From: Bilabrum cf. latius
Taxonomy: Eukaryota
Assembly: GCA_965178125.1 (NCBI GenBank)
Contig: OZ237771.1
Coordinates: 372,001-436,000 of the forward strand
Reading direction: 5' to 3'
DNA: 64,000 nt
The position numbers were made by a program, and so were the translations under genes. The notes below the pieces were generated by a model, which worked only from the letters and a program-made list of their open reading frames with translations, ran no database searches and had not been told where the DNA came from. Shown here piece after piece: positions 7,493-63,279 of this stretch (position 1 is its first letter; each line of letters starts with the position of its first letter).

Positions 7493-7749
7493 TGCGGGCT
7501 GGGCTGATCAGTGGTCACGGTTTGATTGTACAGAGGAGGGGGCCGTGTGGTGTACTGACTAGCATGTGTCTGTTTGTGAGTGTTCAACTGACATCTGTTT
7601 GCGTTTGCTTGCAGCTGCGCTGTGTGCAGTATGTGCAGGGCATTCAAGTTGCCCCCAATCGCACCTCGTCACACACAGCCACACTAGAGTCGATGCAACT
7701 TTGATGAAGCTGTAGAGTCTATATTCAAGACATTGAACGCCATTTAACC

Positions 7750-9126
7750 ATGCGAGGCGCTTTGATATGTGCTACCGTACTCACTTTGCTTTGCAGGGCA
7801 GATAAAATACCCTGCTCTGGCTCTGGAATGCTTGTAGACGGGAAGTGCAAGTGCGAGCCAGGGTTCAACGGGTCCAGCTGCTCGGCGCTAGCATCTGCTT
7901 ACCCGATCCCATTGTAGTCCGGATTTCAGATGAAGAGCAAAGGGTTTCACGTGTGGGGTTCTCAAGTGCTATTTTACCAAGGGGAGTACCACATGATCGC
8001 CAGTGTATACGACGGAGACGTGAACTTTTACGGTCACTGGCTGACAAATGGACAGGTTAGAGCCACGATGGCAGCATTATCATGCATTAAGTAATACTTA
8101 CTGCATAAACGACATATTATCATGGGCCCCAGTCCTATAGAACGCTCGCAGAATATGTACGCGTCCTCGAAATCGCCACTTGGTCCGTTCGAACCCGGCC
8201 CCATTGTTCTCCCCTATAATGACGGGCCTGCTGGCGCCGGTTCAGGCCCAGCCCCATGGGATCGGAACGCCATGAACCCGAAGTTCCTGCTCATCGAGGG
8301 AGCCGGGCACGAGGCTGCGAGGCTTTGGGGCCCGAGCGCTGGTGAAGGCTCGAGCACTGGAGCAGGTGCTCCATCCCAGGATCTGTTCCTGATCTATTAC
8401 ACGGGTGACACTTACAACTACTCGAGGCCGAACGCCACCGACCCTAGCCCTGCCAGCACGTGGATTCCATAGGCCACGCAGCGCGTGGGCCTGGCCTACA
8501 GCACGGCCGGTCCCAGAGGGCCGTACAAGCGCCTCCCGCACCCCGTCCTGCAGCCGAGAGATCAGCCCTACTGGGATTCTAGAATCGTGACGAACGCGGC
8601 AGTGACGCAGATGCCCGACGGGCGCATGCTAATGGTGTACAAGGGGTCGAATCCGCCGGGTGCATTCAACAAGCAGACGCAGGTGTGCATCGGCGTAGCC
8701 ATCGCGCAGAACTGGTCGCAACCATTCGTCAGGGCGCGCAGTGATCCGATCATTCCGTGTCCCAAGGACTCGTTCGACTTTGAAGACCCCAGCGTGTGGT
8801 ACGACAGGAACACGCGAGTCTACCACATGATCCTGAAAGACGCTGCCGGCACTGTCACCCACGAAGGGTACTCCGGTGCCCATGCCGTGTCTACTGACGG
8901 GATGTCCTGGTCCTTCACAGACCCGCCGCTGGCATACCTCCCAAAGCACGTATGGGCCGACGGGAAGGTTCGCGCCATGCACAGGCAAGAGAGACCGCAG
9001 GTTCTGCTGGACCCGACTGACGGATCGCCCCTTGCCATGTACTTTGCCACAGACACGGACCTGGACGGGACGGCAGAGGGGCTTTTCTGGAACATGGTGT
9101 GGCCGTTGAGGGATGGAATGGCGTGA
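7750..9126 (+). CDS. Secreted EGF-like + five-bladed beta-propeller glycoside hydrolase (GH43/GH117-like)
   Basis: Signal-like N-terminus, CKCEPGFNGSSC EGF-like motif, then HVWG, NP, FEDPSVW and ERPQVL motifs. Intron 8056-8151. TAG at 7915 and 8470. Ends TGA. Confidence 0.75.
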
Positions 9127-18258: not shown

Positions 18259-21258
18259 ATGTCCGGTGGATTCTAGGATCTTGGCCTCTTGCCAGAACTC
18301 GTACGGGCGACATAGGATCTGGGATGGCTGTGAGAATAGTGGGTTGATTCTGCACCACGAGTGATTACGATGTTTTCCTATCTTGCATCTATCGAGCGTA
18401 GAATCACCTCGCGCAGGCTTCCAGCAGACGTCCAGGACGAAGCTATCCCCTTAATCATGGGAGGTGGAGATGTTCTCGTGGCTGCAGAGACGGGGAGCGG
18501 CAAGACTGGCGCTTTTGCACTGCCCGCTATCCATTTGGCTCATGAAATCAGACGCACGGCGAGGGACCGGGCACGAAAACCAAAAGAACTCCCTGCTGAA
18601 ATAAAGGCAGATGAGCCTAAGCCTGCTGCAGCCTCAGCCTCACCGGGCCGTGCCGACGACATGAGCTCAAAGCTTCGTCTCTCCCCAGATGACCGTAGCC
18701 CTCTGCTCGCCATCGATCCGTCAGGCCGAGTGTGCCAGTGCAGGCATCCCCACAACTGGGGCGGGGCCCGCTCCCAAGCAGGCCTGCGATGGGGCAAGGT
18801 CTATTTCGAGGCCAAGGTGGAAGACGAGGGGCTGGCTCGGGTGGGGTGGAGCACGGCAGCAGGATCGCTCGATCTGGGCACAGACAGGGCGGGGTGGGGT
18901 TTCGGGGGGACGGGGAAGAAGAGCCACGGGCGCCGGTTTGATGCGTACGGAACCGCCTACGGCCTTGGGGACGTCATCGGGTGCCTGTTGGACGTGAGAC
19001 AAGACGGATCCGGCGGCAGCGTCTCATTCAGTCGCAACGGGGAGTGCTTCGGGGAGGCATTTTCACTCCCCCAAGGGACGGGCGTGCTGTATCCTACAGT
19101 GTGCATGAAGAACGCGCAGCTGAAACTGTCGTTCGGCGGTCCGTAGGGCGGAGCTTTGGCGCATGAGCAGGCAGCGAGGGACATGGGGTATGTTCCGCTC
19201 GGGGACCCGGAATCGATGCGCGGCACCGCTGCGGAACTATCCGCGAGCCGCCCATCGGGTGCCGGCGCTGCCCATGGGGGCAAATCAGCCGGTGGAGGCG
19301 CCGCCTCTGGTTCTCTGCAGAGGTCCCCACTCGTGCTGATCCTCGAGCCGTCCAAGGACTTGGCAGAGCAGACGTACCGGGTGTGCCAGCAGCTGGCAGC
19401 TCATGTCAGCGACCCGCCCGTGCGATCTGTGCTTGCAGTTGGCGGCGGAGACACGAAGGCAGTGACCCGGAGCCTGAGGGAGGGGGTGGAGATTGTGGTG
19501 GGCACGCTTGGCAAACTCATGGATCTTGTCGGTGCGGGGCGGTCTGGCCGGCGGGGGGGTGGGGAGGGGAGAGGCGGCGGGGGCAGTAAGGGGGGTGGTG
19601 CCCCCCTGCTGGATCTGAGCGCCATTCGGGTGTTTGTCCTGGATGAGGCGGACAGGCTGTTCGGAGATTCGGAGGCGTCCGAGCAGGTGAGCCAGCTGTT
19701 CGATCGCATGGACAAGGGGGTGAGAACAGAGGGGGGTGCCAAGGAACGGCTGCAGGTCTGTTTCTTCAGCGCGACTCTGCATGCGCCCACCGTGCGTGAG
19801 GCAGCAGACAGCATGTGCCAGAACCCCGTGTGGGTAGATCTCAAGGGAAAAGATGCGGTCCCAGACACGGTGCACCACGTGGTTGTGCCTGTGGATCCGT
19901 ACATGGACTAGGGTTGGGCGAGACCCGATCACCAGGTCGTCACGGATGCGATGCACCGCCGTGACAAGGTGCGAGGTCGTTCTGGTGACTCCAAACTGAC
20001 GCCGGAAGAGGCCAGCGAAGGGCTCAAGCGGCTCAAGCCGGCCATGCTGGTGAGCCTGCTGGACCAGTTCAGCATGCCGCAGTGCATCGTGTTCTGCAGG
20101 ACGAATCTGGATTGCAGCAACCTGGAGAAATACCTCGTCGGGGCCTCTGGGGGCCGCAAGTTTCGGGGGCAGCAGGAGAAGGGTGCGGAAGGCAGGTACA
20201 GCTGCGCCGTTGTGGGCGGGAGGCGCTCCACGTCAGAGCGGCGCAAGGCGTTAGAGGCCTTCCGCAGCGGTGACGTCAGAGTGCTGATCTGCACGGACGC
20301 GGCAGCTCGTGGGATTGATGTCAAAGAGCTCCCCTTCATGGTGAACATGACTCTGCCGGATGAACCGGAGAACTACATTCACCGGATCGGCAGGGTGGGC
20401 CGCGCCGATCGCATGGGTCTTGCCATCAGTCTCGTATCGGCGGGTCCGCCCGAGAAGGTGTGGTTCTTCAAGGACAGGAAAGAAGACTACACAAACACGA
20501 AGCTCTGGCACAAGGGGGGTGGTGCCATCTGGTATGACGAGTGCAGGTGCCTGCGGGCAATCGAGCGCAGGATCGATTCCGGGAGGGCCGAAGAGGAGCC
20601 CGAAGCCGAGCTGAAGCACGGTGTGAAGGGAGGGGCAGGGGAGGGGGCCGCGTCATCGTCATCATCGCCGTCATCGTCATCGGCGGCAGCAGCTGCAGCA
20701 GGAACAGCAGCAGAGCCCATCCCCCGTATGCCTGGCAGGCCAAGCGGGGCACATGTCCACAGCGGCGGGGCAGTATTTTCCTCCTACAAATACACCCCAC
20801 CTCCGCACTTGCTCGCAGGGGGGTAGTACGGCGAGGAGAAAGCAGTGCAGGAAGGCCCCTCCACCCACGTGCTCTCCATCCAGGAGCAGGTGCAGTGCCT
20901 TGCGGGGATGGAGGTGCAGTCGCAGCTGTCCTACTTGGCCCTGTCCCGGTTTGTTCCCTCCAGGGAACAAGAGCCCCCGGAGCTCGTGTCGGAGGTGGTG
21001 GTGGGTGGACATGACCCTGGTGCAGCGCATGGGGGTGCGGGGACGGCCGGAGCCGCTGCTGTCAGCCAAACCGGTTCGTTCGGGGTAATTTCCAGCCGCG
21101 GTGGGGGTGCATTGCATGTCGGTGCACCGGCGTGGATGGGTGGCCGCGGGGCACTGGCGGGTGCGCCCGTTGGCGTTGAGGGCTTGGGGACCTACTCGAT
21201 CGCTGCTTCAGAGGGTGGGCCGAGGTAGGCCAAGCGAGCCAAGGTCGGGTACGATTGA
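18259..21258 (+). CDS. DDX1: DEAD-box RNA helicase DDX1 (with SPRY insertion)
   Basis: GWL|LPADVQDEAIPLIMGGGDVLVAAETGSGKTGAF, SPRY domain, LDEAD, SAT, ARGID and YIHRIGRVGRADRMGLAISLV. Intron 18330-18416. TAG at 18274, 18313, 19144, 19909, 20824, 21226. Ends TGA. Confidence 0.93.
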
Positions 21259-31400: not shown

Positions 31401-32157
31401 GGGCGTGCACCAGTTCAGGAGGCCAGAGCTTGGCGACAAGTTCTCCTCCAGGCACGGGCAGAAGGGCGTGTGCGGGCTCATCGTGCAGCAGGCCGACATG
31501 CCCTTCAACGACACCGGGGTGTGCCCCGATCTGATCATGAACCCCCACGGGTTTCCCTCCCGCATGACTGTGGGCAAGATGATCGAGCTGCTCGGGTCCA
31601 AGGCCGGCGTGCTGGACGGGTACAGGCGGTACGGGACCGCGTTCGACGGTGACAGTCCAGAGTCAATCGCGGAGGCGCTGGTGAGGCAGGGCTTCCACTA
31701 CGCCGGAAAAGAGGCGCTGTACTCGGGTATCACGGGGGAGCCCCTGCGGAGTTACGTGTTCTTTGGGCCGGTGTATTACCAGAAGCTGAAGCACATGGTA
31801 ATGGACAAGATGCACGCCAGGCCGAGGGGCCCGAGGGCGAGCCTAACCAGGCAGCCAACGGAGGGCAGGTCCAGGGACGGTGGCCTCCGTCTGGGTGAGA
31901 TGGAGCGAGATTGCCTGATAGGATACGGTGCATCGATGCTGCTGCAGGAACGACTCATGATCAGCTCCGACGAGTACGAGGCGGAGGTGTGCACGGGCAG
32001 CAAGTGCGGTGGGCTGCTCGTCTGGGGCGGCTGGTGCCAGCTCTGCCAGTCGGGCAGGCACGTCAAGCGTGTCCGCATGCCGTACGCCTGCAAGCTGCTG
32101 CTGCAAGAACTGCAGGCCATGAATGTAGTGCCCAGGCTGCAGCTTGCCGATGTGTGA
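28456..32157 (+). CDS. POLR3B: RNA polymerase III second-largest subunit (RPC2)
   Basis: [57 protein letters not shown] and [18 protein letters not shown]. Intron 28672-28824. One in-frame TAG at 29197. Ends TGA. Confidence 0.96.
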
Positions 32158-32344: not shown

Positions 32345-35070
32345 TCACCTCACCCTCCGGATGACCCTGCCCTCACTCATCACTTCCACCTCCGCGCGCA
32401 GCCGCATCACCCGCAAAGCCCTCTCCACCTCTACTGCTGCGAACCCGCCCCTCATCAGCTGGTCCTTCACCCGCCTCGCCGATGCGGTCTGCCCCATGGG
32501 AAGCAGGGCCTGGATCCTCGTCTCGGCCTTCTGCACCTGCTGCCTCTCCTCCGATGACAGCTGCTCCGCCCCCACGCCGGACTTGGCCGCATCCAGGGTA
32601 GACACCTCGAACAGCCGTACCGCCTCCCGCACGTGCTCGGGGCCCGCCTCCGTCGCCAGCTGCACCTTGGCCACAGATTCCGACAGGCGGATCAGAGCCT
32701 CCAGCTGACGCACCGTGATGGGAATCACGCTGTCCTTCTAGGAGGCGGCCCTGCCCTCCTCCTCGGCCTTCTTCGTCTTGAGCTGGTGCCTGATCCTGAC
32801 GTACTTGTCCCGGAGGGCCTGCGCCCCTTCAGCCGTTAGCCGTGGCGCGCACCTCGACCGAGCGTACGAGATGTACCGCTTCATGAACGCAAGATCCACC
32901 TCGGCACCCACCCCCGCGCGCTTGGTCCCCGACGCCTCGTCTGCCTTGGCAAGGGCAGGCACCTCGCCAGAGATGCCCCCCATGACACCTGCGACCGCTG
33001 CATCGCCAGAGGTCACAGCCTCTGCCCCCGCCGACACGTGCACGCCCATGACGTGCCTTGCAATGTCCATGTCGCGCGCCTCATCCCGCACGTCTCGCAC
33101 GATGAAGATGAGGTCGAACCGCGACAGGATACTGGGCAGGAAATCGATGTTCTCCGCTGCAGAACGTTCGTCGTCGTACCTCCCGTACACCGGGTTGGCC
33201 GCAGCGAGGACCGCCGACCTGCTGTTGAGCACCGTGGTGATCCCTGCCTTCGCCACCGAGATGGTCTGCTGCTCCATGGCCTCGTGGATGGCCACCCTGT
33301 CCTCCTCTCTCATCTTGTCGAACTCATCGATGCATACCACACCGCCGTCCGCCATGACCATGGCCCCGCCCTCGAGGTAGAATTCGCCCCGCTGGTCGCG
33401 CACCACCGAGGCCGTCAAACCGGCTGCACTCGACCCCTTCCCGCTCGTGTACACGCCGACGGGAGCCACCTTCTCCACGAACTTGAGGAACTGGGACTTG
33501 GCCGTTGAGGGATCTCCCAGCAGCAGCACGTTGATGTCTCCACGGAGCCTCATCCCGTCAGGCAGCATCTTCCTGGACCCAGCAACCAGCAAGGACAAGA
33601 TCGCCCGCTTGATGTCCTTTGTGTAGTCGCCGTAGATCGATGGCGCCACGCTCTCGGCCAGCCGGTCGTACACGCCTGGCTGCTGGGAGAATGCCCTGTA
33701 GTCGTTCTCCTCCTCTGGGGTGAACCGCTGGGACGCCCGCCCCGCCGCGTCGTCCTCCGCCTCAAGGCCGATCACACGGATGTAGGGCGTGCGCACTGCA
33801 CCTGCCGCGCTGCCCCTGCCCCTTTGTGCCCTGGGGCGGGTCACCGACGCCACTCCGATGACCGACACTCTCGTCCCCGGCGACACCCGGTCCACGAGCC
33901 GCCTCTCGCATGAGATGAGCACGTGCCTGGGCATCTCACCCGTGGGCACCTCCTCCGGCGCCTCCTGCAGCTTGATGGTCTGCTGGTCCACGTAGGCACT
34001 GCGGTCCCCCATCACGATGTAGGGATCCAGGGGGCATTTCTGAGAGGTCGCAACGCCGTCCCCCATCTCCTCGGATGGTCGCAGTGCCATGCACTGCCTC
34101 GGCATGGTGAAGGTCCCAAAGCCAGGCGCCACGGGAAGCACCTTGAGGTCGCCGCAGTTGGTGCACCTGATGCATACCTCCTGCGCCTTGGGGGTTGATC
34201 GGCTGGCGTTCACGACGATCCCGGGGACCCGGATGAGGGTGTTGACGTGATGGGCGGACATCTCCCGAATGGGCACAGCCCGGAGCGTCCTACCTCCGAT
34301 GATGGTCTGCACGGCCGGTGTCTCGGCCACCTTGGCGGGGTCCGTGTGGTCCTCTCCCCTCTGCTGAGTGAGCAGGTCGCGGGCGGCGTGCTCCAGCTGC
34401 GGTGTGGTGTCAATATTCAGTAAAGAGCTTTGCGTGTGTAGGGCATGGGAGACACGTAAACTTGATTCGGCTCAGGCAGCGGGGGAGGGACACGGGGAGG
34501 AGGACTCTCAGGGGTACGCGGCAGTAGCGCACCGCGGCACAACTTGCGCACCCGCAGTGATTAATAAAGCCACAATACATATGCCGTAGGTAGTACGCTG
34601 CCATTCGGATTTCAGCTCAAGCACGCCTAGATGCGAATCGATAGATTGCACGAACGACGAACCTGGATAAGCGGGCTACTCACAATTGGCAGGTAAATAT
34701 CAGGGTGCTGGGTGATTAAATCATGCAATTCGCTGCTATATCCACGTAGCTGTTCCAGTTCTAGAGCAAGCACGGGTGATCCCTCTCGGTATGTTGAGAG
34801 CAAGGCATCACTGCGGTGTCGGGAGACTATACAGAGGATCACTTTGCAAACGCCAGCTTAGGCACTGCCAAGTAACGAGTAAGTACACAACAACTATTTC
34901 ATACGGCCTCACCGAAGCACAAAGTTGCCACGCTCCTGGTACTGAGACAGGAACTTCCTGAACTCTTCAAAAGCAACTCGTTGTGACGTGCCAGATCCCG
35001 CATCCCTTGCACCCTATATAACCAGTCCTTGTGACGATGTTGTGATTGATCCTGTATCCCAATCACTCAT
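32345..35070 (-). CDS. MCM5: DNA replication licensing factor MCM5
   Basis: KCPLDPY, LRGDINVLLLGDPSTAKSQFLK, IDEFDKM, SRFD and IPITVRQLEA. Introns 34811-34912 and 34397-34683. TAG at 35014 and 32738. Ends TGA. Confidence 0.95.
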
Positions 35071-35396
35071 GATTGCGTTGCTGCACACGGAGAGCAGTTG
35101 TACGAGCGGGAGGCTGGAACTGTGTACATGGTTCGATCGAGCCCGAAAGAGCTTGGCATGTGCCAATGGAATTACAGTTCCGGACATAGGATTATAGTTG
35201 ATATATTTGCAACACCATTGAGACAACTTACGAATAATCGGATGAGGTCTGGCAGGGATCTTGGCTAAGACTACCTGTGGCTCGCTCGGCGATTGTGGAT
35301 TTGGGGAACGTTCGCACGAGTTCGTTTTCCGTGGTTAGGGCCTAAGCGTAATGGAACACACATACGCAACTCGTTTGTCACATAAACGCATGATTG

Positions 35397-36587
35397 TTAA
35401 GTACGAGTTGCTGCAACCAGTTCCTGCCTGTACCTAACGACTTCCTCGTCGTCCATGGCCCAGATCTGCCCCTTTTCCTCCTCCCGGGCTCGCACCAGCG
35501 AGACCGCCTGGTCCTCTGTCAGGCCGAGCAATTGCCGCCCAATCGTTTTGCTCGCTTCCATAGGGTCAATGGGAAGGCCGTCTGGCGCTATCCGCTCGCC
35601 ATCCTCCTCCTCTGCTGCTGCACTGCTACTGCTACTGCTTGACGTGCCTCGTTTGGACCCAACGGCACCGCCTGCCCCCCCCACAGACCCCCCCACAGAC
35701 CCCCCCACAGACCCCCCCACAGACCCCCCCACAGACCCCCAGTCCAGCCTCCCAAGGGGATCCGAGGGAAGCAGCGCAGCGCGGGCCAGAAGCTCGCAAG
35801 CGCCCGCCATCTCTTCACTCGTCACACCGAACGCGGCCGGCCAGAACGTCTCGCGCGGCGTCGGAGCCCCGATGCAGGCGGCGGCGAGCTCCAGTGATGC
35901 GCAGGCGACGGCCGAGTGCCTGTACCTCAACGAGGACCCAAGTCGGTGGCTGTCCTGGGCCAGCGTCCATGCGAGGGCGAGCGCTCCGGCCGGCAGGTCG
36001 AGCAGGTGCGCCATGAAGACGAGCAGGGAATGCGGCGTTGCGCCCTGCTGCGGGAAATCAAATCCGCAAGACGCGATCGTGTCACGTTCGCAGCGCAATA
36101 CTGCTAGAGAGCGGCGCTAGTAGGACTGGCAGTGCCTCGTGAGGGGAGCATCCTTTGCTTGTCGTCGTGATGCATCGGACATGTGCTGTGCTTGCACCAC
36201 TGAGGCCATGTCGACGGGACATTCCAGGAGCTTGGACGCAAGAAATATTGCTGATGCGGCAATTGAACTTGAGAGTGGCACCGTGATGTGTCTGCCTTTC
36301 GCGAGGAAGCTCGCTGCCAAACAGGAAGCTGTCTCAACAACCGCAGCAGACCTGCGCTCAGAATGGAATGGAATCCTTGTCATATGCCTCGGTGTTGGTT
36401 TCAAGATTCAGTCCTTGTACAATTTGATTCATACGCACGCTCACTGTCCGAGCAATGCTGCAATATCCAGAATATGATCTGCGGTCGTGCACAACGCAAC
36501 AGTGTCGAGGTGCTGCAACGAATGCAAACTTGCTCTGCCATGCAGCCCATCCGGGATGTGCGATACCAGTTTTTGGGCAGCCACCAT
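35397..36587 (-). CDS. Transcription-type cyclin (cyclin L/K/T-like)
   Basis: Cyclin-box motifs AASAIFLASKLLECP, LRCERDTIASCGFDF and YRHSAVACASLELAA. Intron 36352-36444. TAG at 36117. Terminates at TAA 35397-35399. Confidence 0.75.
35674..35740. repeat. 12-bp tandem repeat (CCCCCCACAGAC, about 5 copies) encoding GGSV repeats
   Basis: Seen directly, inside the cyclin-like CDS. Confidence 0.9.
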
Positions 36588-37630: not shown

Positions 37631-40600
37631 TCATCCATGCGCCGAGGGTATCGACAGAAGAGCGTAGCAATGCCTCAGGGTCAGTAGCCCGGCTGGGTTC
37701 ACCGGTGGCAGCGCACCGACGTCATTGAGTGGGGCAGAGCTGCATGCCTCATCTTTTGCCGCCTCCTGTAACTCGACCTCTTCAGCTGCCTCATCTCCTG
37801 CTGCCATGCTGCCCCCAGTGGAAACATTCTACGGCAAGATGGTATCTTCACGGTGCTCCTGCGCTGGAAATCCAAGCTTGGACAGGTGCAAGTCGCCAGA
37901 GAGCGCCCGCTCTGTCTCTCGCACAGGAATCCCGAACACGATGGCCAGGGAGGAAGCCAAAAAATCTGCTGGCCTGGCAGTCATGATCGCGCTCCAATCG
38001 AGCTGGAAGCCGGCGGGGAGGGGCAGTTGGTGCGGTAGGGACAGGGCATCGATGGCTGCCAGCAGCCAGGACATTCCTACGCCTGCGGTTCCCCTTGTCA
38101 AAGCACCCAGGTTCACCCAGTAAAAGTACACGAGGAGGGCCCAGGCAGCAACCCGAATCAGTTGCTCCCTAGGGCTTCCCACCGGGTCTCGAACCTGGGA
38201 TCTCGCGGCCTCATCCAGCCGCTGGAAGCAGAAGCTTAGCTCCTCTGCGATGTGCCTCCACCGCTTGGGCGTACCGGCGGTGCGGATCGTAAAGTCACAG
38301 CCGAAGATGGGCTTGGCCTGCAGCGTGACGCGCGTGCCCTCGTAGATCCGACCGCTGCCAGAGTCCTCTGAAGTAGCGTGCACATTGCCGCCCGCCCCAT
38401 TCTCGTCCTCGCCCTCCGCATGCCTTGCTTCCTGCCTCCTGGCTTCGCCGTCCATGTCCAGCTGCTGCATCGCTGCAATCGACGCAAGCACGCCGTCGTC
38501 ATCATCGTCGGTGTCGGTATCATCGTCGTCGATACCAGGGCGGTCGTCACCGTCGGTTTTCTTGCCTTCGTGGCCGCCTGCACCACTGGCACTGGGGCCG
38601 CGTGCACCGGTTCCATCTGCAGCAGCGCGACGATCTGACCCCGCCCTGTCGTCAGAATCCACCGATGGATACTTGGTGCTGTGGCATTCCGTGGACACCC
38701 ACATGTCCCTTTGAATGATCCTGTACACCTCAACGGGATTGTCTGCCTCCAGCACGCGCCTCCTGTCCTCTGGTGTCAGCGCGCTTCCCTTCGAGACCAA
38801 GTCCTTAAACACACGGAACACCCGCGGGAACTGCGAGTAGTACCTTGGGATCCGCTGCTGCCCGCTGATCAGAGGAGTCTGCAGTCCGAAGCCCTATTCA
38901 AATGCAGCGGGGGTCAGCCCGTCCAAGTAGAACACCGGGTCGAAAGGTTCGCTCACCTGCCTCCACCGCACGAGGATGTCAAAGGCATCGCGCCATACGA
39001 ACCAGTGATAGCTCTTCGGCAGAGCACCTTCAAGGCCCAAATCTGTGCCGCCCTTGCCCTTGCCCTTGCCCTTACCATTGAAGACGCCCATGCTTTCTTC
39101 CTTCATCCAGCCGGTCTGCGGCACGAAGGCACTGCTGCCTGCATCTGGTACTGCCATGTGATGGCTCACAGAACGACCTTGTGCAGATTCGTCATCGCCT
39201 GCACCACGGGAGATGCCCGAACCTCCCACACCGCTGCTGCTGGCCCAGGGCACTCTCGCTCTTCTAGTGCCCCACCAGTGCTGCCTGAGGGCCTATGCCA
39301 GCTCGATTGCAGCGAGGCCGCACTGCCGATGCTGCCTTGCGTTGGTGCTGAACGCCTTGCACCTGTACTGCATCAGGGCCCCGCGCCGGTCGGCATCAAG
39401 TGCAAGAGAGAGGGGGGCCTGCGGCAGGATGGCGAGGAGATGGGAACTGGCATCATCTGAAGACCCGGGGATCGATGGCGCAGATCCCCCCGCAGAAAGC
39501 GCCAAAGGCCATGCTGCTGGATCGCCCTGCTATGCGCGGCATACCGCCTAGAGCCCGCCCGCGCGGATCACAGGGTCCCAATGCTTCGCGCACACGCCCA
39601 CGTCGGGCAAACCACTCGTCACACCATCCCCGCTAGCACTCATCACACCGGAATCGCCATACCCCACCAGAGGGGCGGGGATGGTCCTGCAATCCGCCCT
39701 CCCCATCCACAGCATCGCACGCGGATGCATCCAGCCATGCTCAAAGGACTCGTATCTTGCCCTGGCTAGCCGCTGCGACTTTACTCCCGGGCTGCCTGCA
39801 GCGCCTGGGCCGGACGACGCATCCAGCTGCAGAGGAGGCAACCGCCCGAACCTGTGCCTGCAGTCAGGTGCCGCCAGCTCGCCGTGCAGCTGGGTGGGCG
39901 CCATTTCCAGATCGCCCCTGCAGCCCACCATGTTGGCTTCTAGCAGGCCGTCAGCAAGCGCCGCCTCCGACCGACGGCCCGAGCCAGAGGCTGGCGCCAC
40001 CGAGGATGACGAGTGTTTTCCATGGTGGTGTGACGAGTGCGTATGGCGTGTCGCACCGGCAGCCAATCTGCCAGCGATGGCAGGCGACACGGGCACCGGG
40101 ACGGAGTCAGGCCTCACTGCAGCCAGGGGCGGGTCCCTGAACCCAGCGGGGCGCTGGCTCTTTCCCAATCGCTTTGCGAAGCACTCCTTCACCAGCGGCG
40201 CAGTGGAAGAATCCAGGCTGCAGGATGCCACGGGCTCGTCCAGTTTGGCCCCCATGGCCGCGGCCCACGCCATCTGGTGGTATCCGACATGCTTGTCGTC
40301 GGTCGCAAACGCCATCGCGTACACGTGGAGGGCAGCGCGGATGCGTCCCATGGCGTGCATGCACATTGCCCTGAGGAACAGCACCTCCCGCTCCTGCTGC
40401 AGCATCTTCTCTCCGCTCTCCAAGAGGGCTGCCATCCCAGGCTGCTGCAGCCTGCTCCTGAGGTGCTGCGCCCGGGACCTGACCACGTCTTCCGCAATCC
40501 TGACCGATGCCTGCAGGTTGCTGTACGTGAAGGGGAGCGAGTCGGGCGAGGAGGAAGCGGAGCTCGCGTCCGGTGGACTCCCCGGCTGCAGAGCGGGCAC

Positions 40601-43600
40601 CGCCAGAGACGCCAGATCCAGGTATGCCTATGCATCCACTGCAGGTCGGGAAACAGTGGGAGAGGGCGCGGGTGCGCCATCACCAAGCGTGGGCGGTACC
40701 TTAGCGGAGATGACCATGTACCCCGCGCATCGGAATGCAGCGTCTCTGGCATGAGCACTGTCCACGGCTGCGTCTGTCTAGACCGCAACAGGATGCAGCT
40801 GCTCTTGTTGCTGACTAACGTTTGCTCTTGATACAGCTTCGGGGCCGTGGGATGTGCCCACGCCTGCCCCTGCCCCTGTTCCTGCGCCTGCACCTGGCGA
40901 CACTTCGCCGGTTACGATGGTCGCGGCTTCGCCCCGCGCTTCGGAAGGTGTGGACACATCCCCTGCAGGCAAGGTACCGCTATCCATGCGTCCGTGCCTG
41001 CCCCGTCCCTTTCCCTTGCGTCGCCTGGTACCGCCTGACCTCCTGAGTGGCGGGCTCGATGTGGCAGGGACGCTGCTGCTGCTGCTCGCAGTACCACCTT
41101 TTGAATTTGCGGGTGTGCCCCCGGAGCCCGTCTTGGCAGATGTACCTGCCGCATGGGTGTTTTCCAACGAGCTGGCTGCTTCTTGACTACTCATCACACC
41201 GCTGTACATGGCACCGAGGGCCCGTCTGCTGGCCATGGCCGCGTCCTGCACACGCACCCCACTCTTCCCATCCACATGCCATCTGAGACCATTCTGCGGC
41301 GATGCCCCTGCCGCGAGTGCCTAAGCACCTGCAGCACCTGCACCTGCAGCACCTGCACCTGCAGTAGCACCAGCAGTCTGCTCCTGTCCGGCGGAAGCGC
41401 TCCCCCCACCGGCCTCCGCCCCGCCGCCTCCTTGCCCGCGGGCAGTCCTACCGGCCCGTCCCCTCCGACGCACCCCCTCACTCGTCACACTTCTCCACGC
41501 CACCTTGGGGTCGGACAGGCGGGAGGAAGGCAGCCTGCCCGCGCTGGTGGCCGCCCGGTGCCTCTTGACCAAGGGGGTGAGATCACCCCCCATGTCAACG
41601 CATCTGACTGCCTCCAGGACGCATCCGTCCCCCGTGGCATCCGCGATCAGCTGAAGACACGAGTCACAGTCATGTAGGGACATATAGTGCTGTCCCCTGG
41701 TGTGACGAGAGAGGGCCCGCTGGTAGAAGAGGTCGATGGCTTCGATGTGGTGGTTGCAACCGAGGGTCAGAAGAGCCTCGCTCTCCCCGAAGCGTCCCCC
41801 CGTCCGGAGGGCCCCTGCGTACCTGCTCAGCAGACGACGGGTGTGAGCCGCACCAACCCTGAGGGCATCCGCCATGGCCCAGGCAACCTCGAAGGCAGCC
41901 CACGCGGCCTCATGTCGCCCCGTCTCAGCGAGGCAAGTCCCCAGGCTCTCCCACCCGTTGAGCAGCTCCACGTCCTGGGGCTGCTGGTGCTGGCTGGGCT
42001 CGGGCCTGCCAGTGTCCAGCTGCACGAACCTGTGCGGCGGCGGTCTCGTCTCCCTGGCCTTCTGCCGCTTGGGGTCACTGTCCGCCCGCTCGTCTTCCTT
42101 GGCCTGCGCGTTGTGTCGCTCGCGGGCTCTCGGGTCCATGGGGCAGCCGATCCTCAGCAAGGCCCTCTCCTCCATGGCAGCGTCCTGGTCTTCAAGCATC
42201 TCTGTGTCCGTCACTGGCATCAGCCGCATGGCTCGACGGATCTGCACGCCGCTCAGCCAGCGGGTCTGTTGTTGGGAGCCAAAGCCCGATGCCCAGGGCA
42301 TGGTCCAGTTGGGCTGGTACAGTCCCGGCAGCATCACGTGACCTCGCTCCGCCCGTGTGACCCACTGGTTCTTGCGCCAGGTGCCGTCCCCGCACAGTAC
42401 GCTAGGTGCGGCCAGCTGCTCCACGGGAAGAAACTCCCGTTTCCTCGCTTCGATCGGGCTGAACGGCGCGTCGATGCACGAGTATCTGTCCCTGTGGCAC
42501 CCGTCCATCCACTCCTCCAGCCGAGGGTCACCCTCCCAGTCAGCCTGCCCGCACCCGTACGCCACGATCCCGCGGGCGTCGCGCAGGGGCTCCAGGGGCG
42601 GCGTGAAGCCTCCGCTGCTGCTGTTGCTGGGCTCTGCCGACATGGTGCTCATCTACTACCTGATGGAAGATTCGTCGCCTTCTCCGTCCCACGTGTGCCG
42701 CATGAGCCCTGGGGGAGTGGAGTACACCGTCATCCAGTCGGTTCGCTTGGCCTTGGTCCACACGGCCTCGACCGCCGGGTCCTCTAGCCTGGTGTAGCGC
42801 CTGTCGCCGGCGTTCATCTTCACGAACAGGTCGGGGATCCCCCTCGCCCTGTCCCTCTTGTGCTGCATGCCCCAGGGAACAACGATCCCCAGATCGGTCT
42901 GGGTCTCAGCGTACATGTGCAGCACCTGCGAGTTCTGGCACGCGTTCAGCAGCACCCACGCGCCCGGCACGTCCACCGCCCGCCGCAGCCTCACGGCGGG
43001 CACTTTGAGACCGAGAGCCACCTCGTAGTCGGTGATGGCCGCCTCGTAGTCCTTGAGCGAGAGCAGCAGCCGGGCGCGGAAGAGTCGGTAGAATGGCACG
43101 CGGGGCGCCATGCGGACACACATGGTCACGTCGGCCAGGGCCTGGGGCAGCCTCTGCAGGGCAAAGTGGGCTTGGGCCCTGTGGGACCACGCATCTAGAC
43201 TCGTCACATCGAGGCGGATCGCAAGGGTTAGGTCAACCAGAGCCGCCTGGTACTTTTCTTGCATGCTGAGCGCGGTGCCGCGTGTGACGAGTGCGTCGTG
43301 TAGCAGGGGGGCCTCCCGCAGGAGCTTGTTGAGCCCCGATATGCACTGGTCCAGCCGACCGAGAACCAGCAGCTGCTTGCAGACCTTCGCTTTGGCGAGG
43401 GCCTGCTTGAGATCGAGGCTGGCGGTGCCCCCGTACTTGATGGCGGCAAGCACCACCTGATTCACGTACTTCCCGGTCGCGTGCTCCTCGTCTGGCGGGT
43501 GCTCCGTGATCTGGGGCAGGTCGAGGAGCTCGAAGCTCCGTGCTTCTTCGTGGAACACACTATCCGGTCCATTCAATTTGGAGATGGTTGCAAACAGGCC

Positions 43601-46600
43601 GTGCTGCGCATTGACCGACAGCGGGAGGACGCGCATGCCGCCGTTGCCCAGTTTCTGATCGCGATCGTACCGCTCGAACGTTCGCTAGGCCTGGGACGGC
43701 TCAGGGGCGTGGATGCCCCTCTCCCGCCACTCGCTCGCATCTGCCGGCACTTCCCCCATGCTCTTGAGCATCGCTTCCTGTAGGGACGCGGGGCGCCCGA
43801 ACTGCCTCTGCTGGAACCCAAAGGACCCTTGCGGGCCCTGATGGCCCTACGGCTGCTCGGGAAATGAGAAGAACCTGGCCCTAGGCACGTAGGGGCCGAA
43901 GGTGTGCGCCTTGTGGTGCCAGCGGGCGTCTGACTTGTCCATGGCAAACGCTGCGAGGTTCATGCTTCTCTTCACCATGGATGGCAGGTTGTCTCCGCTT
44001 TCCTGCTGCCTTCGCAAGTACAGCGCGATGCTGACTGCGGCCCGATCGCTGCCTAGGATGTGCGGCATGATGACTCGCATGTTGGCGAACCTGTAGTCGT
44101 GCCACTGAATCTGCTGCTCCATGAGAGCCTGCTGTTCCGATGCGGTCATTCGGTGCCCAAACATCTTCTCGTGTTCGGCAATCACGTCCTGGCTGACGAC
44201 GGGAGGGAGCCCTCTTCGTATCCTGTCAAGTTCTGCCGCGAGCTGGACCGACTTGGTACACACAGATGCAATCTCCGAGCGGAGCTTGACCGGGGCAGGG
44301 GACGGGGACGGGGACGGGCCGGATCTGGAGTTGTTCCAGGTCTCTTGGTCATCGGCTACGATGTACTGGCTGTCATCGAGCTTCAGATGATCCATCGCGA
44401 CTTTGATGATCCGATGCAGGGGGTTGCAAAGCACGTGGGCGTCGCTGCGCTGGTCGACCCCCACAGGCACGATGGGCAGCTCACACACCATCGGGCGGTC
44501 GCCCTTCATCACAAGCCCATGAATAATCGTCTCGAGCATTGCCGGGTTCGCAAATCCGTTGCGCGTCAGAGCGGCGAACACATCAGCAAGTGCAGACTCG
44601 GTGTCATCGGGCGCGGGGGCGGCAGCTGCGCTGGAAGCATCCATCGGGTACAGCTCTGCCTCCACCCGTGGGAAATGGATCTCCGCCAGCCTGATCTGCT
44701 TGAGCGCAAAGTTGTACTCGCGCAGTGTTGCGTCCAGCGCTGCTTCTTCCACAGGCGCAGACGGCAGCTTAAAGATTCCCATGCCGCTCGCCTCTGTCAC
44801 CTGCGCCAGCGCCGTGGTGGACTTGATCGAACCCTTCTGCCTACTCGCAGTACTCGCGCCGATCCCGAGCTCTCCCAATACCGCGGTACGGCCAATATCA
44901 GTGAGCCGCTACTGCCTGTACATGGTCAGCGCGACAGAGAGGGCGCGGGCGACGAGCGTCTGGCCCTCGGGCTGCCCCGCACCGGGGCCCATGGCGGCAG
45001 ACCCGCGGCCGTCCAGCGGCTCATTGGGACGGCCTGCGAGCGCGCTGACACGGTCAGCGGCTCGGCTAGCCAATAGAGACACCCGCTGCCCTGTTGTCGG
45101 GTCAGGCACCGCATACTACCAGGTGCTGCTCGCCTGATGCTAGTGCTCTCCATCTTCATGGCCGGAGACAGCCGCTGGCAGGGCCCGCTGGTGCTGGTAG
45201 ACCAGGTCGAGCTGTGCTGGTGCGACAGGGGCTTGCTTGGGACCCGCATGCGGGATCGGGTCGCTTCCCATCGGGACAGCGGGTGGTGCTCCGATTCGAA
45301 GTGGCGCGAACTCGCCGAGCCCTCCGTCAGTCCCTGTCCCCACCAGCCGACGGATGGTCTGAAACCCCGCGGCCACCTTCGCGTTCTTCGTGTGGATCCC
45401 CACTGGGTTCCTGGTCTTTGTGAACCAGTCCTGCTGCCCAAGTGCAAGCGTCCTGCCCTCGTCTAGCAGGCGGTATGATGGATCATCCTGCCACACGATC
45501 GATGGAAGCGGCTCGCCGGGCTTCGTAATGGGAACCGTCTCCACCACGCCCCGTAGCAACGACGAAAATCGGGCGGCGGCAGCATACGTGCGCTGATCCA
45601 CGGGCTGCCAGCACAGCCCCGGGATCTGCTGTGCCACCTGCAGCCCCCCACCCCTGCGAGGGGCAGGCGGCCTGGCTGCTCCAGCGGGCGGAGTAACTGC
45701 TGTTGATGCTGGTGCTGTCGATTCTGCCTGTATGGGTGCAGCCGAACGAAGCTTAGGCTCCAGGTCGGGCTCCAGATTGGAAGACTGTACCGGCGCTGGC
45801 GCTGGCGCTGGTGCTGGCGCTGGTGCTGGCGCTGGTGCTGGCGCTGGTGCTGGCGCTGGTGCTGGTGCTGGTGCTGGCGCTGGCGCTGGCGCTGGTGCTG
45901 GTGCTGGTGCTGGTGCTGGTGCTAGCGCAGGTGCTGGCGCAGGTGCTAGCGCAGGTGCTGGTGCTAATACCGGCGCTGGCGCAGGTGCTGGCGCAGGTGC
46001 TGGCGCAGGTGCTGGCGCAGGTGCTGGCGCAGGTGCTGGCGCAGGTGCTGGCGCAGGTGCTGGCGCAGGTGCTGGCGCAGGTGCTGGCGCAGGTGCTGGC
46101 TCAGGTGCTGGCGCAGGTGCTGGCGCAGGTGCTGGCGCAAGCCCTGCCATAGGTTCTGCCGGTCGTGGCCGAGTCCCGATCTCAGCATTTGCCTTCATTG
46201 AGCCTGCTATGTTGCTTGATGATTGCAGTTCACCTTCTGCGTCCCCTTTCTTGCTACCCGGACTTCTATGCTGGCGTACCTCTGGCTGCGCCGAATCGGT
46301 CGCCAGCGTTTCAGGAGCGTCTAAATCATACAACATCTGCTAAAGACTCATAACAGCCGAAACTGATGAACCAGGAGACGCAGCTCTCAAACCATCATGC
46401 AAGGCTTGAATGGCCTGTGTTGTTTTGCCTCGTTTTCGCTCCCCTCGAGCAACGACCAGGTAGGCGTCCAATAAATCTCTAGATAACGCGATCGCGGCTT
46501 TGCCATCCGTAATTGCCCTTCGTGTCATGCCCCTTCCCAAGTACGAGTTTGCGCGATGAACCAATACATTTGCGCGCACACTGTCGCTGTGGCCTGGCTC

Positions 46601-46702
46601 AGCGAGCGAAGCTGTCAGCTATCTCACTGCCTCTGCGTATGAGCCGCGGGCACCGGCCATGATACCCTACACTATACTACTTCCATCGTGAGCAGCCGCC
46701 AT
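37631..46702 (-). CDS. Giant TPR protein of the TTC13 / SRFR1 family (about 3020 aa)
   Basis: Twelve listed ORFs lie in one frame, separated only by 18 TAGs, with no TAA or TGA over 9 kb. TPR repeats. C-terminal family motifs [38 protein letters not shown] and [14 protein letters not shown]. Ends TGA at 37631. Confidence 0.85.
45791..46140. repeat. 6/12-bp tandem repeat encoding a long (Ala-Pro)n tract
   Basis: (gctggc/gctggt)n followed by (gcaggtgctggc)n, within the TTC13-like CDS. Confidence 0.95.
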
Positions 46703-47227
46703 TGGGGCAAGCTGTGGCCAACGAATCAATCGGAGGGTAGAGAGCAAGATGAAGACCAAAAAAAGAGCAACTTTCAGATGCTGGCATTTGGCAAGTATGT
46801 CAGGGATTCGAATGAAGAATAGCACTGTTGTATCCGTAGCTATCATTGGAATCATATATGCTGCGCTCCGAATGCAGAATAGCATGTCCCAGGAACGCCC
46901 GGACAAACAAAGGTAATACACTATTGTCCGCTTGAAACTTGTCCCGTTGTCCAGCTTTAGTATGACTTGTGGTTTACTCCAGTTTGATCCAATTTCACAG
47001 ATAGCATGTTCTGTCCCTGAAAGACTAGGTAGCCAGTCAAGGGGCCAGACAGCCAAAACTGCAGGCAAGGCAGGCCGCGGCAGCAAGTGCACCTGCTCGT
47101 GGCGGCGGCTCGCAGGTGATTCTCGCAGTGAAGCCGAAGCCAGCCCAGCCAGTATTTGATGAAGGACTTGGTGATGGTTCAAATAGAAGATAATGCATCG
47201 TGGACTGTGTTTGTGTCTCTCAGCCAG

Positions 47228-47669
47228 TCAACTACTGCCAGGCGGCCGAGCACCAGATTCTTCATCGCCACCAATGCCACTACCAGCAGAAGAACCATCC
47301 TATTCGCCAGAGCGATTTGTCTGAATGAGCTCTCCAGTGGCATCACACCCTAGCCTCTCCAGCTCGATCAAAATCTCCGCCTGTGGGACGGGAGCAGCGG
47401 CCCGCAGCCCGAGCCTCGCCCTCGCCGCCTGCCTGGCGTCAAACCTTCGCCGAGCGGCGAGAATCTCGCGGTCGCTCGTCCATCGCTCGTTCATGTCACG
47501 AACCTCGACAGCCCCTGGGTCTGCACCAGACTTTTTGGGTGCATCGGACTGTAGTGCATCGCCTCTACCCTGGGGGTTCGGCTGCTGCACTGTACCCCCG
47601 TCTGCGGATCCAGCACCAGCCAAGCTCGACGCCGTTGCATCGTCTCCAGAAACTATGCCGCCTTCGGCC

Positions 47670-47712
<43 letters not shown>

Positions 47713-48352
47713 TTGCTCCTGCTCCTGCTCCTGCTCCTGAAGCAGCAGCTCCTGCCCTCCTCCTCAATGCCTCCTCTTTCAGTTGTGCCGATGTTGCCAC
47801 CAGCACGCCCTCTTCCACCTGATCGCCCCTCTGCTCACGTATACGCTGCTATTCTACCTTCCGGGCCTAGGCCTTAGCGAGCAGTTTGCCAATATACCGG
47901 CTTTGGGGTTTCCCAGTCCCAGCTTTGCCTAATTCTGCCGGCTTGCCAAGCGACAATCCGTTGGCTATCGAGCTGTGAAGCCCGCTCGAATCTGCTGCAA
48001 AATGACTGGCCGTAGATGCCCGTGTCTATTGCGGTAATGTCTACGGCAAACTAGGCGCAGAGATCGCTGGGGACGGTGCACCGGGAAGGCCCCCCGAGAC
48101 AAGCGGAAGCGCCTTTGACATCATATCTCGCGGACGTTTCAAGCCCGGTTTACTTGTAGATTTCGTAGTTGATGGTTTACTGGTGCGCTGCTGAAATGAG
48201 CTGGCTCCAAGCTTTCGTATGGGCTTGGCTGCAGCTAGTTTTGGTCTTTGGGCTTTAATTGCCTGCTATCGTCGTTTGTTAAACAATGGACCAGCATCAT
48301 CATCACTATCGGAATCACCAGTTCCAAATACACTGGCTAAACCTTTCTTCAT
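47228..48352 (-). CDS. NSRP1/CCDC55-like (DUF2040) nuclear speckle splicing regulator
   Basis: MKKGLASVFGTGDSDSDDD start and KPQSRYIGKLLAKA*ARKVE*QRIRE, resembling the KPKYIxxLLKA..RKKEQE motif. Six TAGs hide most of it from the ORF track. Ends TGA at 47228. Confidence 0.65.
47670..47737. repeat. 6-bp tandem repeat (CCTGCT)n encoding (Ala-Gly)n
   Basis: Seen directly, inside the NSRP1-like CDS. Confidence 0.9.
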
Positions 48353-48444
48353 GTTATTTATGTTGTAATCGCTTGCCGCCGTCCGCTCTCCGCCAATTCA
48401 CTCCACAGACCGGAACACGCCGAACTGGGGCCACCCACCCAGAT

Positions 48445-61971: not shown

Positions 61972-63279
61972 ATGCGTGCGAAGAGCGCGGTCACAGGGGT
62001 GATAGCGGTCCTGGCAGCCTCCCAATGCGTAGCTCTAAACAACGGCCTCGGCCACCTGCCCCCCATGGCGTACAGCACCTGGAATGCGTTTGGCCCTTGG
62101 CTCAACCAGACGCAAATCCTATAGAACGCTGCAATCATCAAGAACCGCGGCCTGTACGAGGCGGGATACCGAGGCATTCACATCGACGAGGGGTGGATAG
62201 CGAGCAACCGGTCGAAGGATGGCAAACTTGTGGTTGATCAGGCCAAATTTCCATCCGGGATGGAGAGCTTTGGTAAAAGTGTCAAATAGCTCGGATTTAA
62301 GCTGGGATTGTACACCTCGAGAGGAACAGAGCAGTGCGGCGCGGCGAAGGGGTACCATGCCCCGGGTTCGCACGGCTTCGAGGAGCAGGACGTGTCTTAG
62401 ATGGCGTCTTACGGGGCCACGTTCATCAAAGTCGATTCCTGCACGGGATCTTAGAACCACTCTCAGGCGTATGCCGACTATTCCAAGTTCAGAGACGCGA
62501 TGGCAAAGCAGCCGCAGCCCATCTTTCACTCCCTCTGCGGATGGAACGAATGGTATACCCCCGTGGGGTATTCTCTCGGCAACTCGTGGCGGGTGGCAGG
62601 CGACTGCAGCCAGTACGACCACTTCCTGAATGTGGTTGACGCCATGGCCGCCGCGGTGCAGTGGTCAGGGCCGGGGGGCTGGAACGACGCGGACTTGCTG
62701 ATTACCGAGCACACGCCGGCTGTGGGCGGATTCGATGCTCCTCAGCAGAGCCGCCTTTAGTTCAGTCTGTACTGCGTGATGAGTGCGCCGCTGATTATAT
62801 CCGTTGACCTCCGGCAGCAGACCGAGTACGCCTTCGAGACGTATTCCAACAAGGAGGCTATCGAAGTGAACCAGGACGACATCGCCAGGCCGGGGTTCCG
62901 GTTATTGGGGGGTGACGTGGGGCCGTCGGTGGCAGGTGATGGTACTGCTAGGAAGAACTAGAACCAGCAGCGATCGGACCGGGTGCAGGTGCAGACTTAG
63001 GGTAGCACAAACATCTGGGCCAAGCCACTGGCCGATGGGTCCATCGCGATGGTGTTTGCCAACTTCGGGAACGGCTCGGGTGTGACGATTGAGTGCCCGC
63101 TGCAGGGGTGCCTGGACCAGCTGGGCATCGGAGCGGGGACCAGGGTGGCTGTCAGGGATCTGTGGGCTCACTCGGACAATGGAACGTTCGTCGGTCACGA
63201 GGGCCTGTCTGTGCGCGTGGAGGATCCAACTGCGGGAGTGATGGTGCGGCTGACACCGGAGTGGGCATACGTCCGGTGA
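61972..63279 (+). CDS. GH27 alpha-galactosidase / alpha-N-acetylgalactosaminidase, secreted
   Basis: Signal peptide, LNNGLGHLPPMAYSTWN, IHIDEGW, KFPSGM, FIKVDSC, NSWRVAGD, GPGGWNDADLL, APLIIS, VNQD and VRDLW. Seven in-frame TAGs (62122, 62287, 62398, 62452, 62758, 62959, 62998). Ends TGA. Confidence 0.93.

Follow-up and report, generated by a model that had tools for sequence, protein, structure and literature searches.

Introduction

Can UAG become a glutamine codon in a nuclear genome while UAA continues to end genes? This question is raised by a stretch of 64,000 nucleotides (positions 372,001 to 436,000 of contig OZ237771.1, assembly GCA_965178125.1; hereafter the window) and in particular by a cyclin-like gene on its minus strand that appears to be closed by TAA. 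UAA and UAG nearly always change their meaning together (at least 13 cases of coordinated change are counted in PMC5304391), and a split between them is known in a few lineages only. The uncoupling of UAG (a sense codon, read as glutamine) from UAA (not a sense codon) is strongly supported in the window because codon counts, glutamine-dominated alignment columns, and RNA contigs that keep their TAGs all lead to it. More broadly, we consider it likely that the window belongs to a GC-rich eukaryotic nuclear genome in which genes are densely spaced and introns short, and that UAG encodes glutamine there, UGA is the usual stop codon, and UAA is held outside of the coding sequences yet ends at least one gene.

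The window has a GC content of 60% and a GC content at third codon positions (GC3) of 0.76. Pfam matches include RPC2 (28816-32154; the name, which stands for Pol III subunit 2, is taken from the source annotations of homologues), MCM5 (32348-34471), and a DDX1-like SPRY/DEAD helicase (18334-21255), as well as a P-type ATPase, a GH27 alpha-galactosidase, a SET/Rubisco-LSMT protein, GH5, EF-hand proteins, and EGF-rich proteins. Gene models outside of the region from 17.7 to 37.7 kb are based on open reading frames (ORFs) and Pfam alone.

TAG as a sense codon for glutamine

When TAG is read as sense, ORFs in the window extend over up to 3,198 codons, and eukaryotic Pfam domains are recognised in them (RPC2, MCM5, DDX1, P-type ATPase, GH27, and SET/LSMT). 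ORFs of 1,000-3,198 codons carry up to 18 TAGs each and neither TGA nor TAA. In total, the 18 long stop-to-stop ORFs hold 90 TAG and 0 TAA codons, next to 591 CAG and 121 CAA codons; at least two of these TAGs (18337 and 28106) lie inside RNA-verified introns.

Evidence at the transcript level comes from three sequencing runs labelled 'RNA?' (one of which, X5, bears the addition 'probably DNA'), whose contigs carry GT..AG or CT..AC joints, whereas the DNA run X1 is without joints. All figures derived from RNA contigs are lower bounds, as they come from the pieces listed only. These joints define 12 introns with lengths of 69-287 nt. Spliced RNA contigs that match the window without a single base difference contain at least 13 in-frame TAGs (Table 1), and it follows that the TAGs are removed neither by splicing nor by editing. 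One of the introns, at 20845-20913 (+) in the DDX1-like gene, is 69 nt long, in frame, and free of stop codons, so that the unspliced ORF runs straight through it; it was revealed by the RNA joint only.

The amino acid meaning of TAG can be read from conserved alignment columns. The alpha-galactosidase was aligned with all 120 homologues listed (34-46% identity), and two of its seven TAG columns are dominated by glutamine (Table 1). Furthermore, DDX1 of a relative is present on two metagenome loci (L001 and L002; 74% and 60% identical to the window's DDX1, GC content of 55-57%). It contains six in-frame TAGs, one of which coincides with a TAG of the window's DDX1, and in-frame TAA is absent. 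Where TAGs take part in this comparison, TAG is paired with glutamine at three sites and with TAG, serine, and threonine at one site each, and one of the TAG sites is occupied by glutamine in human DDX1 too. In PDB alignments of DDX1 and MCM5 the TAGs fall mostly at variable positions and are otherwise uninformative on the amino acid. Since the relative carries in-frame TAGs, no TAA, and TGA at its gene ends (both ends on L001 are TGA), the code change is apparently common to more than one organism.

TAA is kept out of the reading frames

After trimming of the parts belonging to introns and untranslated regions (UTRs), 15,588 curated codons remained, among which 83 TAG, 0 TAA, and 0 TGA were counted. 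The sequence-only reading had reported about 100 internal TAGs and no internal TAA in spite of the use of CAA, and had proposed that UAA and UAG are uncoupled; both the counts in the 18 long ORFs, which come close to its figure, and those in the curated codons bear this out. The curated set consists of two tiers. Tier 1 (segments with RNA joints and/or Pfam domains, and one long TPR ORF) comprises 11,865 codons with 49 TAG, 0 TAA, and 0 TGA; tier 2 (further long ORFs) comprises 3,723 codons with 34 TAG, 0 TAA, and 0 TGA. If TAA were synonymous with TAG, 7.3 + 11.5 = 18.8 TAA codons would be expected by the CAA/CAG ratio, for which the probability of observing none is about 7e-9. The expected number is higher still when the GAA/GAG or AAA/AAG ratios are used. 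Out of frame, TAA occurs 78 times in the same curated segments. Moreover, 13 of the 18 long ORFs are flanked by TGA at both ends, and the absence of TAA is therefore no artefact of TAA serving as an ORF boundary.

A single TAA (8092-8094) stands in frame between two ORFs (7708-8091 and 8095-9123) that look like one gene with a signal peptide, an EGF module, and a GH43/GH159-like propeller. It is located in a segment (8056-8151) that is very probably an intron, as predicted from its composition and borders. The segment has a length of 96 nt, begins with GT, and ends with AG, and its 3' end (CTCGCAG) recurs in the RNA-verified intron 21995-22088. The GC content of the segment (0.44) is below that of its two flanks (0.52 and 0.62) and at the lower end of the range of verified introns (0.44-0.67); the codon score is -0.29 inside it but +0.12 and +0.22 in the flanks. 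An in-frame intron is also known from the window itself, given the RNA joint in DDX1.

The product of this gene (7750-9123, plus strand) is a predicted secreted protein with a teneurin-like EGF module and a five-bladed-propeller-like domain. Matches of the propeller are weak and restricted to GH159 and GH43 (E 0.019-1.6), and none of the Pfam families covers it; on the gene as a whole (7708-9123) the EGF module alone was matched by Pfam.

The cyclin-like gene and its TAA codon

The minus-strand ORF 36407..35400 is ended by TAA, as had been claimed from the sequence alone. A DNA contig of run X1 spans 33267-35705, including this codon, with 0 differences from the window. The gene is a putative divergent transcription-type (L/K/T-like) cyclin. 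While a word-based homologue search with the cyclin exon gave no matches, an exhaustive search delivered 155 homologues at E<=1e-3, which match residues ~2-260 of the query. Nine of the best homologues were scanned, and Cyclin_N and CycT2-like_C were each detected in seven of them. The query's own Pfam match, to Cyclin_C, is below threshold (E=0.003-0.005, 17-18 bits vs a cut-off of 22), and the N-terminal cyclin repeat is only partly contained in the exons identified. Another in-frame TAA is found in the 5' leader, six codons upstream of the probable start codon.

Whether the protein truly ends at this TAA can be judged from its C-terminus. The last 56 residues of the exon product are not reached by the best homologous stretches listed, with the exception of P0122, a protein of 173 aa encoded on a 6,019-nt metagenome contig. 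BLASTP aligns P0122 with residues 115-315 of the 316-residue exon product (E=1e-24), the last 17 residues included, and P0122 ends five residues beyond this alignment. The C-terminal tails are DDEEVVRYRQELVAATR in the cyclin-like protein and DDESEQERYTMEIRAATR in P0122. Near the TAA, GC3 drops from 0.9 to 0.4, and the GC content from 0.68 to 0.48 and later 0.47; beyond it, the codon score is negative at a GC3 of 0.40-0.55. The sequence-only reading had placed this shift at the TAA itself. The shift is real, but it starts about 16 codons earlier. Because the alignment with P0122 extends through the tail, the low-GC3 last 16 codons are coding, and the protein family ends at or next to the TAA.

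Two other gene models were considered and set aside. In one, the coding sequence is spliced at AG|GTACAG (35437), which would render the TAA intronic; it was rejected because the residues past this site are conserved in P0122. In the other, translation reads through the TAA for 110 codons up to the TGA at 35069-35067, which overlaps the start codon of MCM5 (35070..35068); it was dropped in view of the negative codon score and this overlap. Among the RNA-contig pieces listed, no splice joint crosses 35397.

Stop codon usage

Gene ends could be resolved in 19 cases, of which 18 are TGA and one, that of the cyclin-like gene, is TAA; one further gene leaves the window. This agrees with the earlier statement that all other resolved ends are TGA. 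In the gaps between genes of the 64-kb window no further convincing coding ORF ending in TAA was found. Such a strong preference for TGA is to be expected, because GC3 is as high as 0.76. Taken together, one gene, one orthologue, and the loss of coding signal make UAA a probable terminator. The sequence-only reading had rested this function on one terminus; the C-terminus of P0122 and the loss of coding signal have now been added, but the evidence still comes from one gene.

A different kind of boundary is seen at 47228-47230 (-), where a TGA alone separates two same-frame ORFs (48397..47231 with 389 codons, and 47227..37634, the TPR ORF with 3,198 codons). After this TGA, about 175 codons without TGA or TAA follow until the likely start (MAAAHDG..., near 46,700). 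The arrangement could be due to chance (1 in 3 for a frame match), an intron, or TGA read-through.

Alternative readings

Several observations weigh against the interpretation that UAG is glutamine and UAA a working stop codon. The TAA terminus is a single one in the window, the coding signal drops before it is reached, and neither RNA cover of 35397 nor a poly(A) site is among the pieces listed. P0122 was compared at the protein level. Five of the seven TAG columns in the alpha-galactosidase are variable and uninformative. The label of run X5, 'RNA? (probably DNA)', has to be counted as well, although X5 shows GT..AG joints that X1 lacks. Finally, the same-frame ORFs on either side of the TAA at 8092-8094 belong to one gene, and the intron around this TAA is a prediction only, whose exon junction receives no homology support from PDB or Pfam (in PDB, exon 1 has a GH159/GH43-like match of 22 residues only, E 0.019-0.12, and exon 2 gave nothing useful).

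These points have to be set against what the alternatives would require. The most drastic one, that TAG is not a sense codon and that the in-frame TAGs are introns, pseudogene lesions, RNA-edited sites, or assembly errors, can point to the two TAGs (18337 and 28106) in verified introns; with at least 13 TAGs in spliced RNA contigs that match the DNA exactly, very long ORFs that admit up to 18 TAGs yet no TGA or TAA, glutamine-dominated columns, and a relative that shows the same trait including one shared site, its probability is close to nil. Nor does it seem plausible, except as a very slight chance, that both UAA and UAG encode glutamine (the UAR=Gln code, NCBI table 6) and that TAA is merely rare due to GC-richness. 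A-ending codons are indeed disfavoured (CAA/CAG = 0.15-0.34), and the TAA at 8092-8094 joins two same-frame ORFs of one gene. However, at least 18.8 TAA codons are expected and at most one is seen (P ~1e-7 even when 8092 is counted), this one is located in a GT..AG segment with intron-like GC content and a negative codon score, and the cyclin protein stops at TAA as its orthologue P0122 does. A dual, context-dependent UAG, which would be glutamine inside genes and a stop near their 3' ends (as in Condylostoma or Blastocrithidia), would account for TAGs that precede TGA by at most 10 codons in DDX1 (21226) and in a zf-CXXC gene (61684), both with tails whose C-termini are not conserved. Yet the in-frame TAG rate, applied to 10 codons in each of 18 genes, predicts about 0.9 such cases, which makes two of them unremarkable, and RPC2, MCM5, and the alpha-galactosidase end at their expected C-termini by TGA with no TAG nearby; this reading is thus given only a small chance. 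In the ambiguous codes of Condylostoma and Blastocrithidia, moreover, all stop codons occur internally, whereas here TGA and TAA never do.

The chief competitor concerns UAA rather than UAG and is, in our view, improbable but to be taken more seriously than the former three. It holds that UAA is effectively unassigned as a consequence of GC pressure and of an eRF1 that reads UAR poorly, that UGA is the sole regular terminator, and that the cyclin TAA is a rare, possibly leaky leftover. It would fit with a single TAA among 19 gene ends and TGA at both ends on L001, in contrast to Iotanema, which ends 104 of 119 genes with UAA (PMC5304391), and with the rarity of TAA overall (403 in both strands of the window vs 567 expected from dinucleotides). 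On the other hand, P0122 ends within five residues of the TAA, so termination seems to happen there, the preference for TGA is expected at this GC3 anyway, and 19 gene ends are too small a sample to show that UAA is under-used. A UAA that still terminates translation remains the preferred reading.

Possible mechanism

Under the model that Panek et al. put forward in 2017 (PMC5304391), the glutamine meaning would be supplied by a tRNA-Gln whose CUA anticodon can pair with UAG and cannot pair with UAA. In addition, eRF1 would have lost or weakened its recognition of UAG while that of UGA and UAA was kept. The proposal of the sequence-only reading, by which eRF1 would recognise UAA and UGA but no longer UAG, is reasonable on this model. 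In the 64-kb window, ARAGORN detected 0 tRNA genes, there were 0 Rfam matches, and a Pfam scan found no eRF1 gene among the ORFs.

Lineage of the window

The position of the organism was approached through RPC2. Among the 120 matches listed, the best (61-68% identity) come from metagenomes and from a single contig in an assembly that bears the label Symbiodinium sp. KB8. Oomycete RPC2 comes next (58-59%). A tree (FastTree, LG+gamma, midpoint-rooted) was calculated from the query and 49 of the 120 matches (22 named and 27 from metagenomes, with 71 left out), without fornicate, ciliate, or alveolate reference sequences. The query falls in a metagenome clade that is sister to ochrophytes and oomycetes. 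This stramenopile-side position is a single-gene lead and not a placement.

The closest named RPC2 (P0271, 68% identity) is encoded on a 46.7-kb contig of the Symbiodinium sp. KB8-labelled assembly. It groups with the query and the metagenome sequences and not with alveolates (for which the tree holds no reference), and its contig may be non-dinoflagellate DNA within that assembly.

Neighbouring genes and coding repeats

Coordinates of the features discussed here are collected in Table 1. Downstream of the cyclin-like gene, MCM5 is encoded on the same strand, with RNA joints 34396->34684 and 34810->34913 (X5 and X6 contigs). As its first exon, at whose border the contigs end, reaches 35080, at most 317 nt lie between the cyclin TAA and the MCM5 exon. 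The X5 and X6 contigs break off at 35080, immediately next to a CAG acceptor, one of them with 15 extra unaligned letters, and a consensus GTAAGT donor is present at ~35231-35226 (-). These features point to an intron of about 150 nt in the 5' UTR of MCM5 (or to trans-splicing) within 35081-35231, in which case transcription of MCM5 would start about 170 nt or less from the cyclin stop codon.

Two more tandem repeats are located in coding regions. The first (45792-46139; 12-nt unit, 28.5 copies) gives the giant TPR protein a long run of Ala and Pro; the second is found at 47670-47739 (6-nt unit, 11.7 copies).

Table 1. Positions of the codons, exons, introns, and repeats on which the analysis draws (window coordinates)
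Feature	Position	Strand	Remarks
TAA stop of the cyclin-like gene	35397..35399	-	'tta' on the plus strand; first in-frame TGA/TAA of ORF 36407..35400
Last coding exon, cyclin L/K/T-like (putative)	35400..36349	-	316 codons in frame from 36347; TAG at 36119..36117; (SVGG)5
Intron of the cyclin-like gene	36350..36442	-	joint 36349->36443, CT..AC (cut +2), one X5 contig of depth 22; ends ambiguous by 2 nt
Upstream coding exon, cyclin-like gene	36443..36587	-	translation over the RNA-supported joint; probable ATG 36587..36585 (presumed start)
12-nt tandem repeat in the cyclin-like exon	35676..35740		5.4 copies, encoding (SVGG)n
First coding exon of MCM5	34913..35080	-	ATG 35070..35068; TAG 35016..35014; X5 and X6 RNA contigs
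TAGs in RNA contigs	20824, 21226, 22518, 22770, 23295, 23316, 25445, 25442, 26747, 26603, 29197, 32740, 35016		
In-frame TAG of the DDX1-like gene	20824..20826	+	Gln in relative L001; X5 contig 20599-20844 with 0 differences
Alpha-galactosidase TAG, conserved glutamine column	62758..62760	+	Q in 105/120 homologues, M in 15
Alpha-galactosidase TAG, mostly-glutamine column	62452..62454	+	Q in 73/120 homologues
Sole in-frame TAA between same-frame coding ORFs (7708-8091, 8095-9123)	8092..8094	+	inside predicted intron 8056-8151
TGA stop of RPC2	32155..32157	+	Rpb2_7 domain reaches residue 1109/1113
TGA stop of MCM5	32345..32347	-	yeast MCM5 alignment reaches query residue 680/683

Comparison with known genetic codes

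The closest described case is Iotanema spirale (Fornicata), in which UAG encodes glutamine and UAA and UGA are stop codons (Panek et al. 2017, PMC5304391). Its genes end with UAA in 104 of 119 cases and with UGA in 15, its eRF1 carries the substitution T32G, and a tRNA-Gln(CUA) together with a weakened recognition of UAG has been proposed (PMC5304391). The window resembles Iotanema in that UAG alone is reassigned, to glutamine, no UAA or UGA is found internally, UAA probably still ends genes, and the predicted mechanism is the same. It differs in its stop codon usage (one TAA and 18 TGA among 19 ends, at GC3 0.76) and in the position of its RPC2, which belongs to a clade sister to ochrophytes and oomycetes, in a tree without fornicates. 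The sequence-only reading had named Iotanema as a case of UAG=Gln with UAA as a stop, which is correct according to PMC5304391, but it omitted phyllopharyngean ciliates with the same code (PMC11687900).

These ciliates are Hartmannula sinica and Trochilia petrani (UAG=Gln; McGowan et al. 2024, PMC11687900), which share with the window the UAG-only change to glutamine and, probably, the use of UAA as a stop. The window differs from them as a multi-gene stretch of 64 kb in which spliceosomal introns occur and the GC content is 60%, and its RPC2 falls in a clade sister to ochrophytes and oomycetes (in a tree without ciliates). UAG is also uncoupled from UAA in Rhizaria sp. exLh (PMC5304391) and in three TARA phyllopharyngeans (PMC11687900), where it encodes leucine and UAA is a stop. 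As is probable for the window, UAA and UGA still serve as terminators in these organisms; unlike there, the TAG columns in the window are occupied by glutamine (105/120 and 73/120). A ciliate in which UAA and UAG encode different amino acids has been described too (PMC10553269). Those split-code lineages whose stop numbers were compared prefer UAA as a stop, whereas the window prefers UGA.

The UAR=Gln code (NCBI table 6) is used by many ciliates, hexamitin diplomonads, oxymonads, and some ulvophytes (PMC5304391). It has in common with the window that a stop codon is taken by a glutamine tRNA and that UGA acts as terminator, but in the window UAA is not a sense codon (0 of 15,588 codons vs at least 18.8 expected). 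Formally, the code of the window is identical to NCBI table 15 (TAG=Q, TAA and TGA stops), which is an agreement with a table and not with an organism: this table, named 'Blepharisma macronuclear', was attributed to Blepharisma in error (PMC5304391) and is also used for some phages (PMC9523058).

A code of this type has been described before; what looks new is the lineage and its UGA-dominated stop usage. The literature yielded no stramenopile or labyrinthulomycete with a reported reassignment of nuclear UAG, with most subscription journals lying outside of the search. We can tentatively propose, though with some doubt prevailing, that the window represents an independent, unreported origin of UAG=Gln with UAA as a stop in a stramenopile-related lineage, which is common to at least one environmental relative and in which, against a GC-rich background, UGA does the work of termination and UAA has almost vanished.

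Biological significance

Each new case in which UAA and UAG are split tests whether their coupling stems from wobble decoding or from eRF1. The window differs from the described cases in being GC-rich and UGA-terminated, so that UAA is rare for compositional reasons, and it could thereby separate two situations, namely UAA being kept as the main stop codon and UAA being kept because a tRNA(CUA) cannot read it. For gene annotation, the consequence is a practical one, since gene callers that apply the standard code would truncate most proteins of this organism and its relatives (83 TAGs in about 20 genes). If true, the proposed code would fit with codon capture under GC pressure and would provide a natural system for an eRF1 that loses UAG but not UAA.

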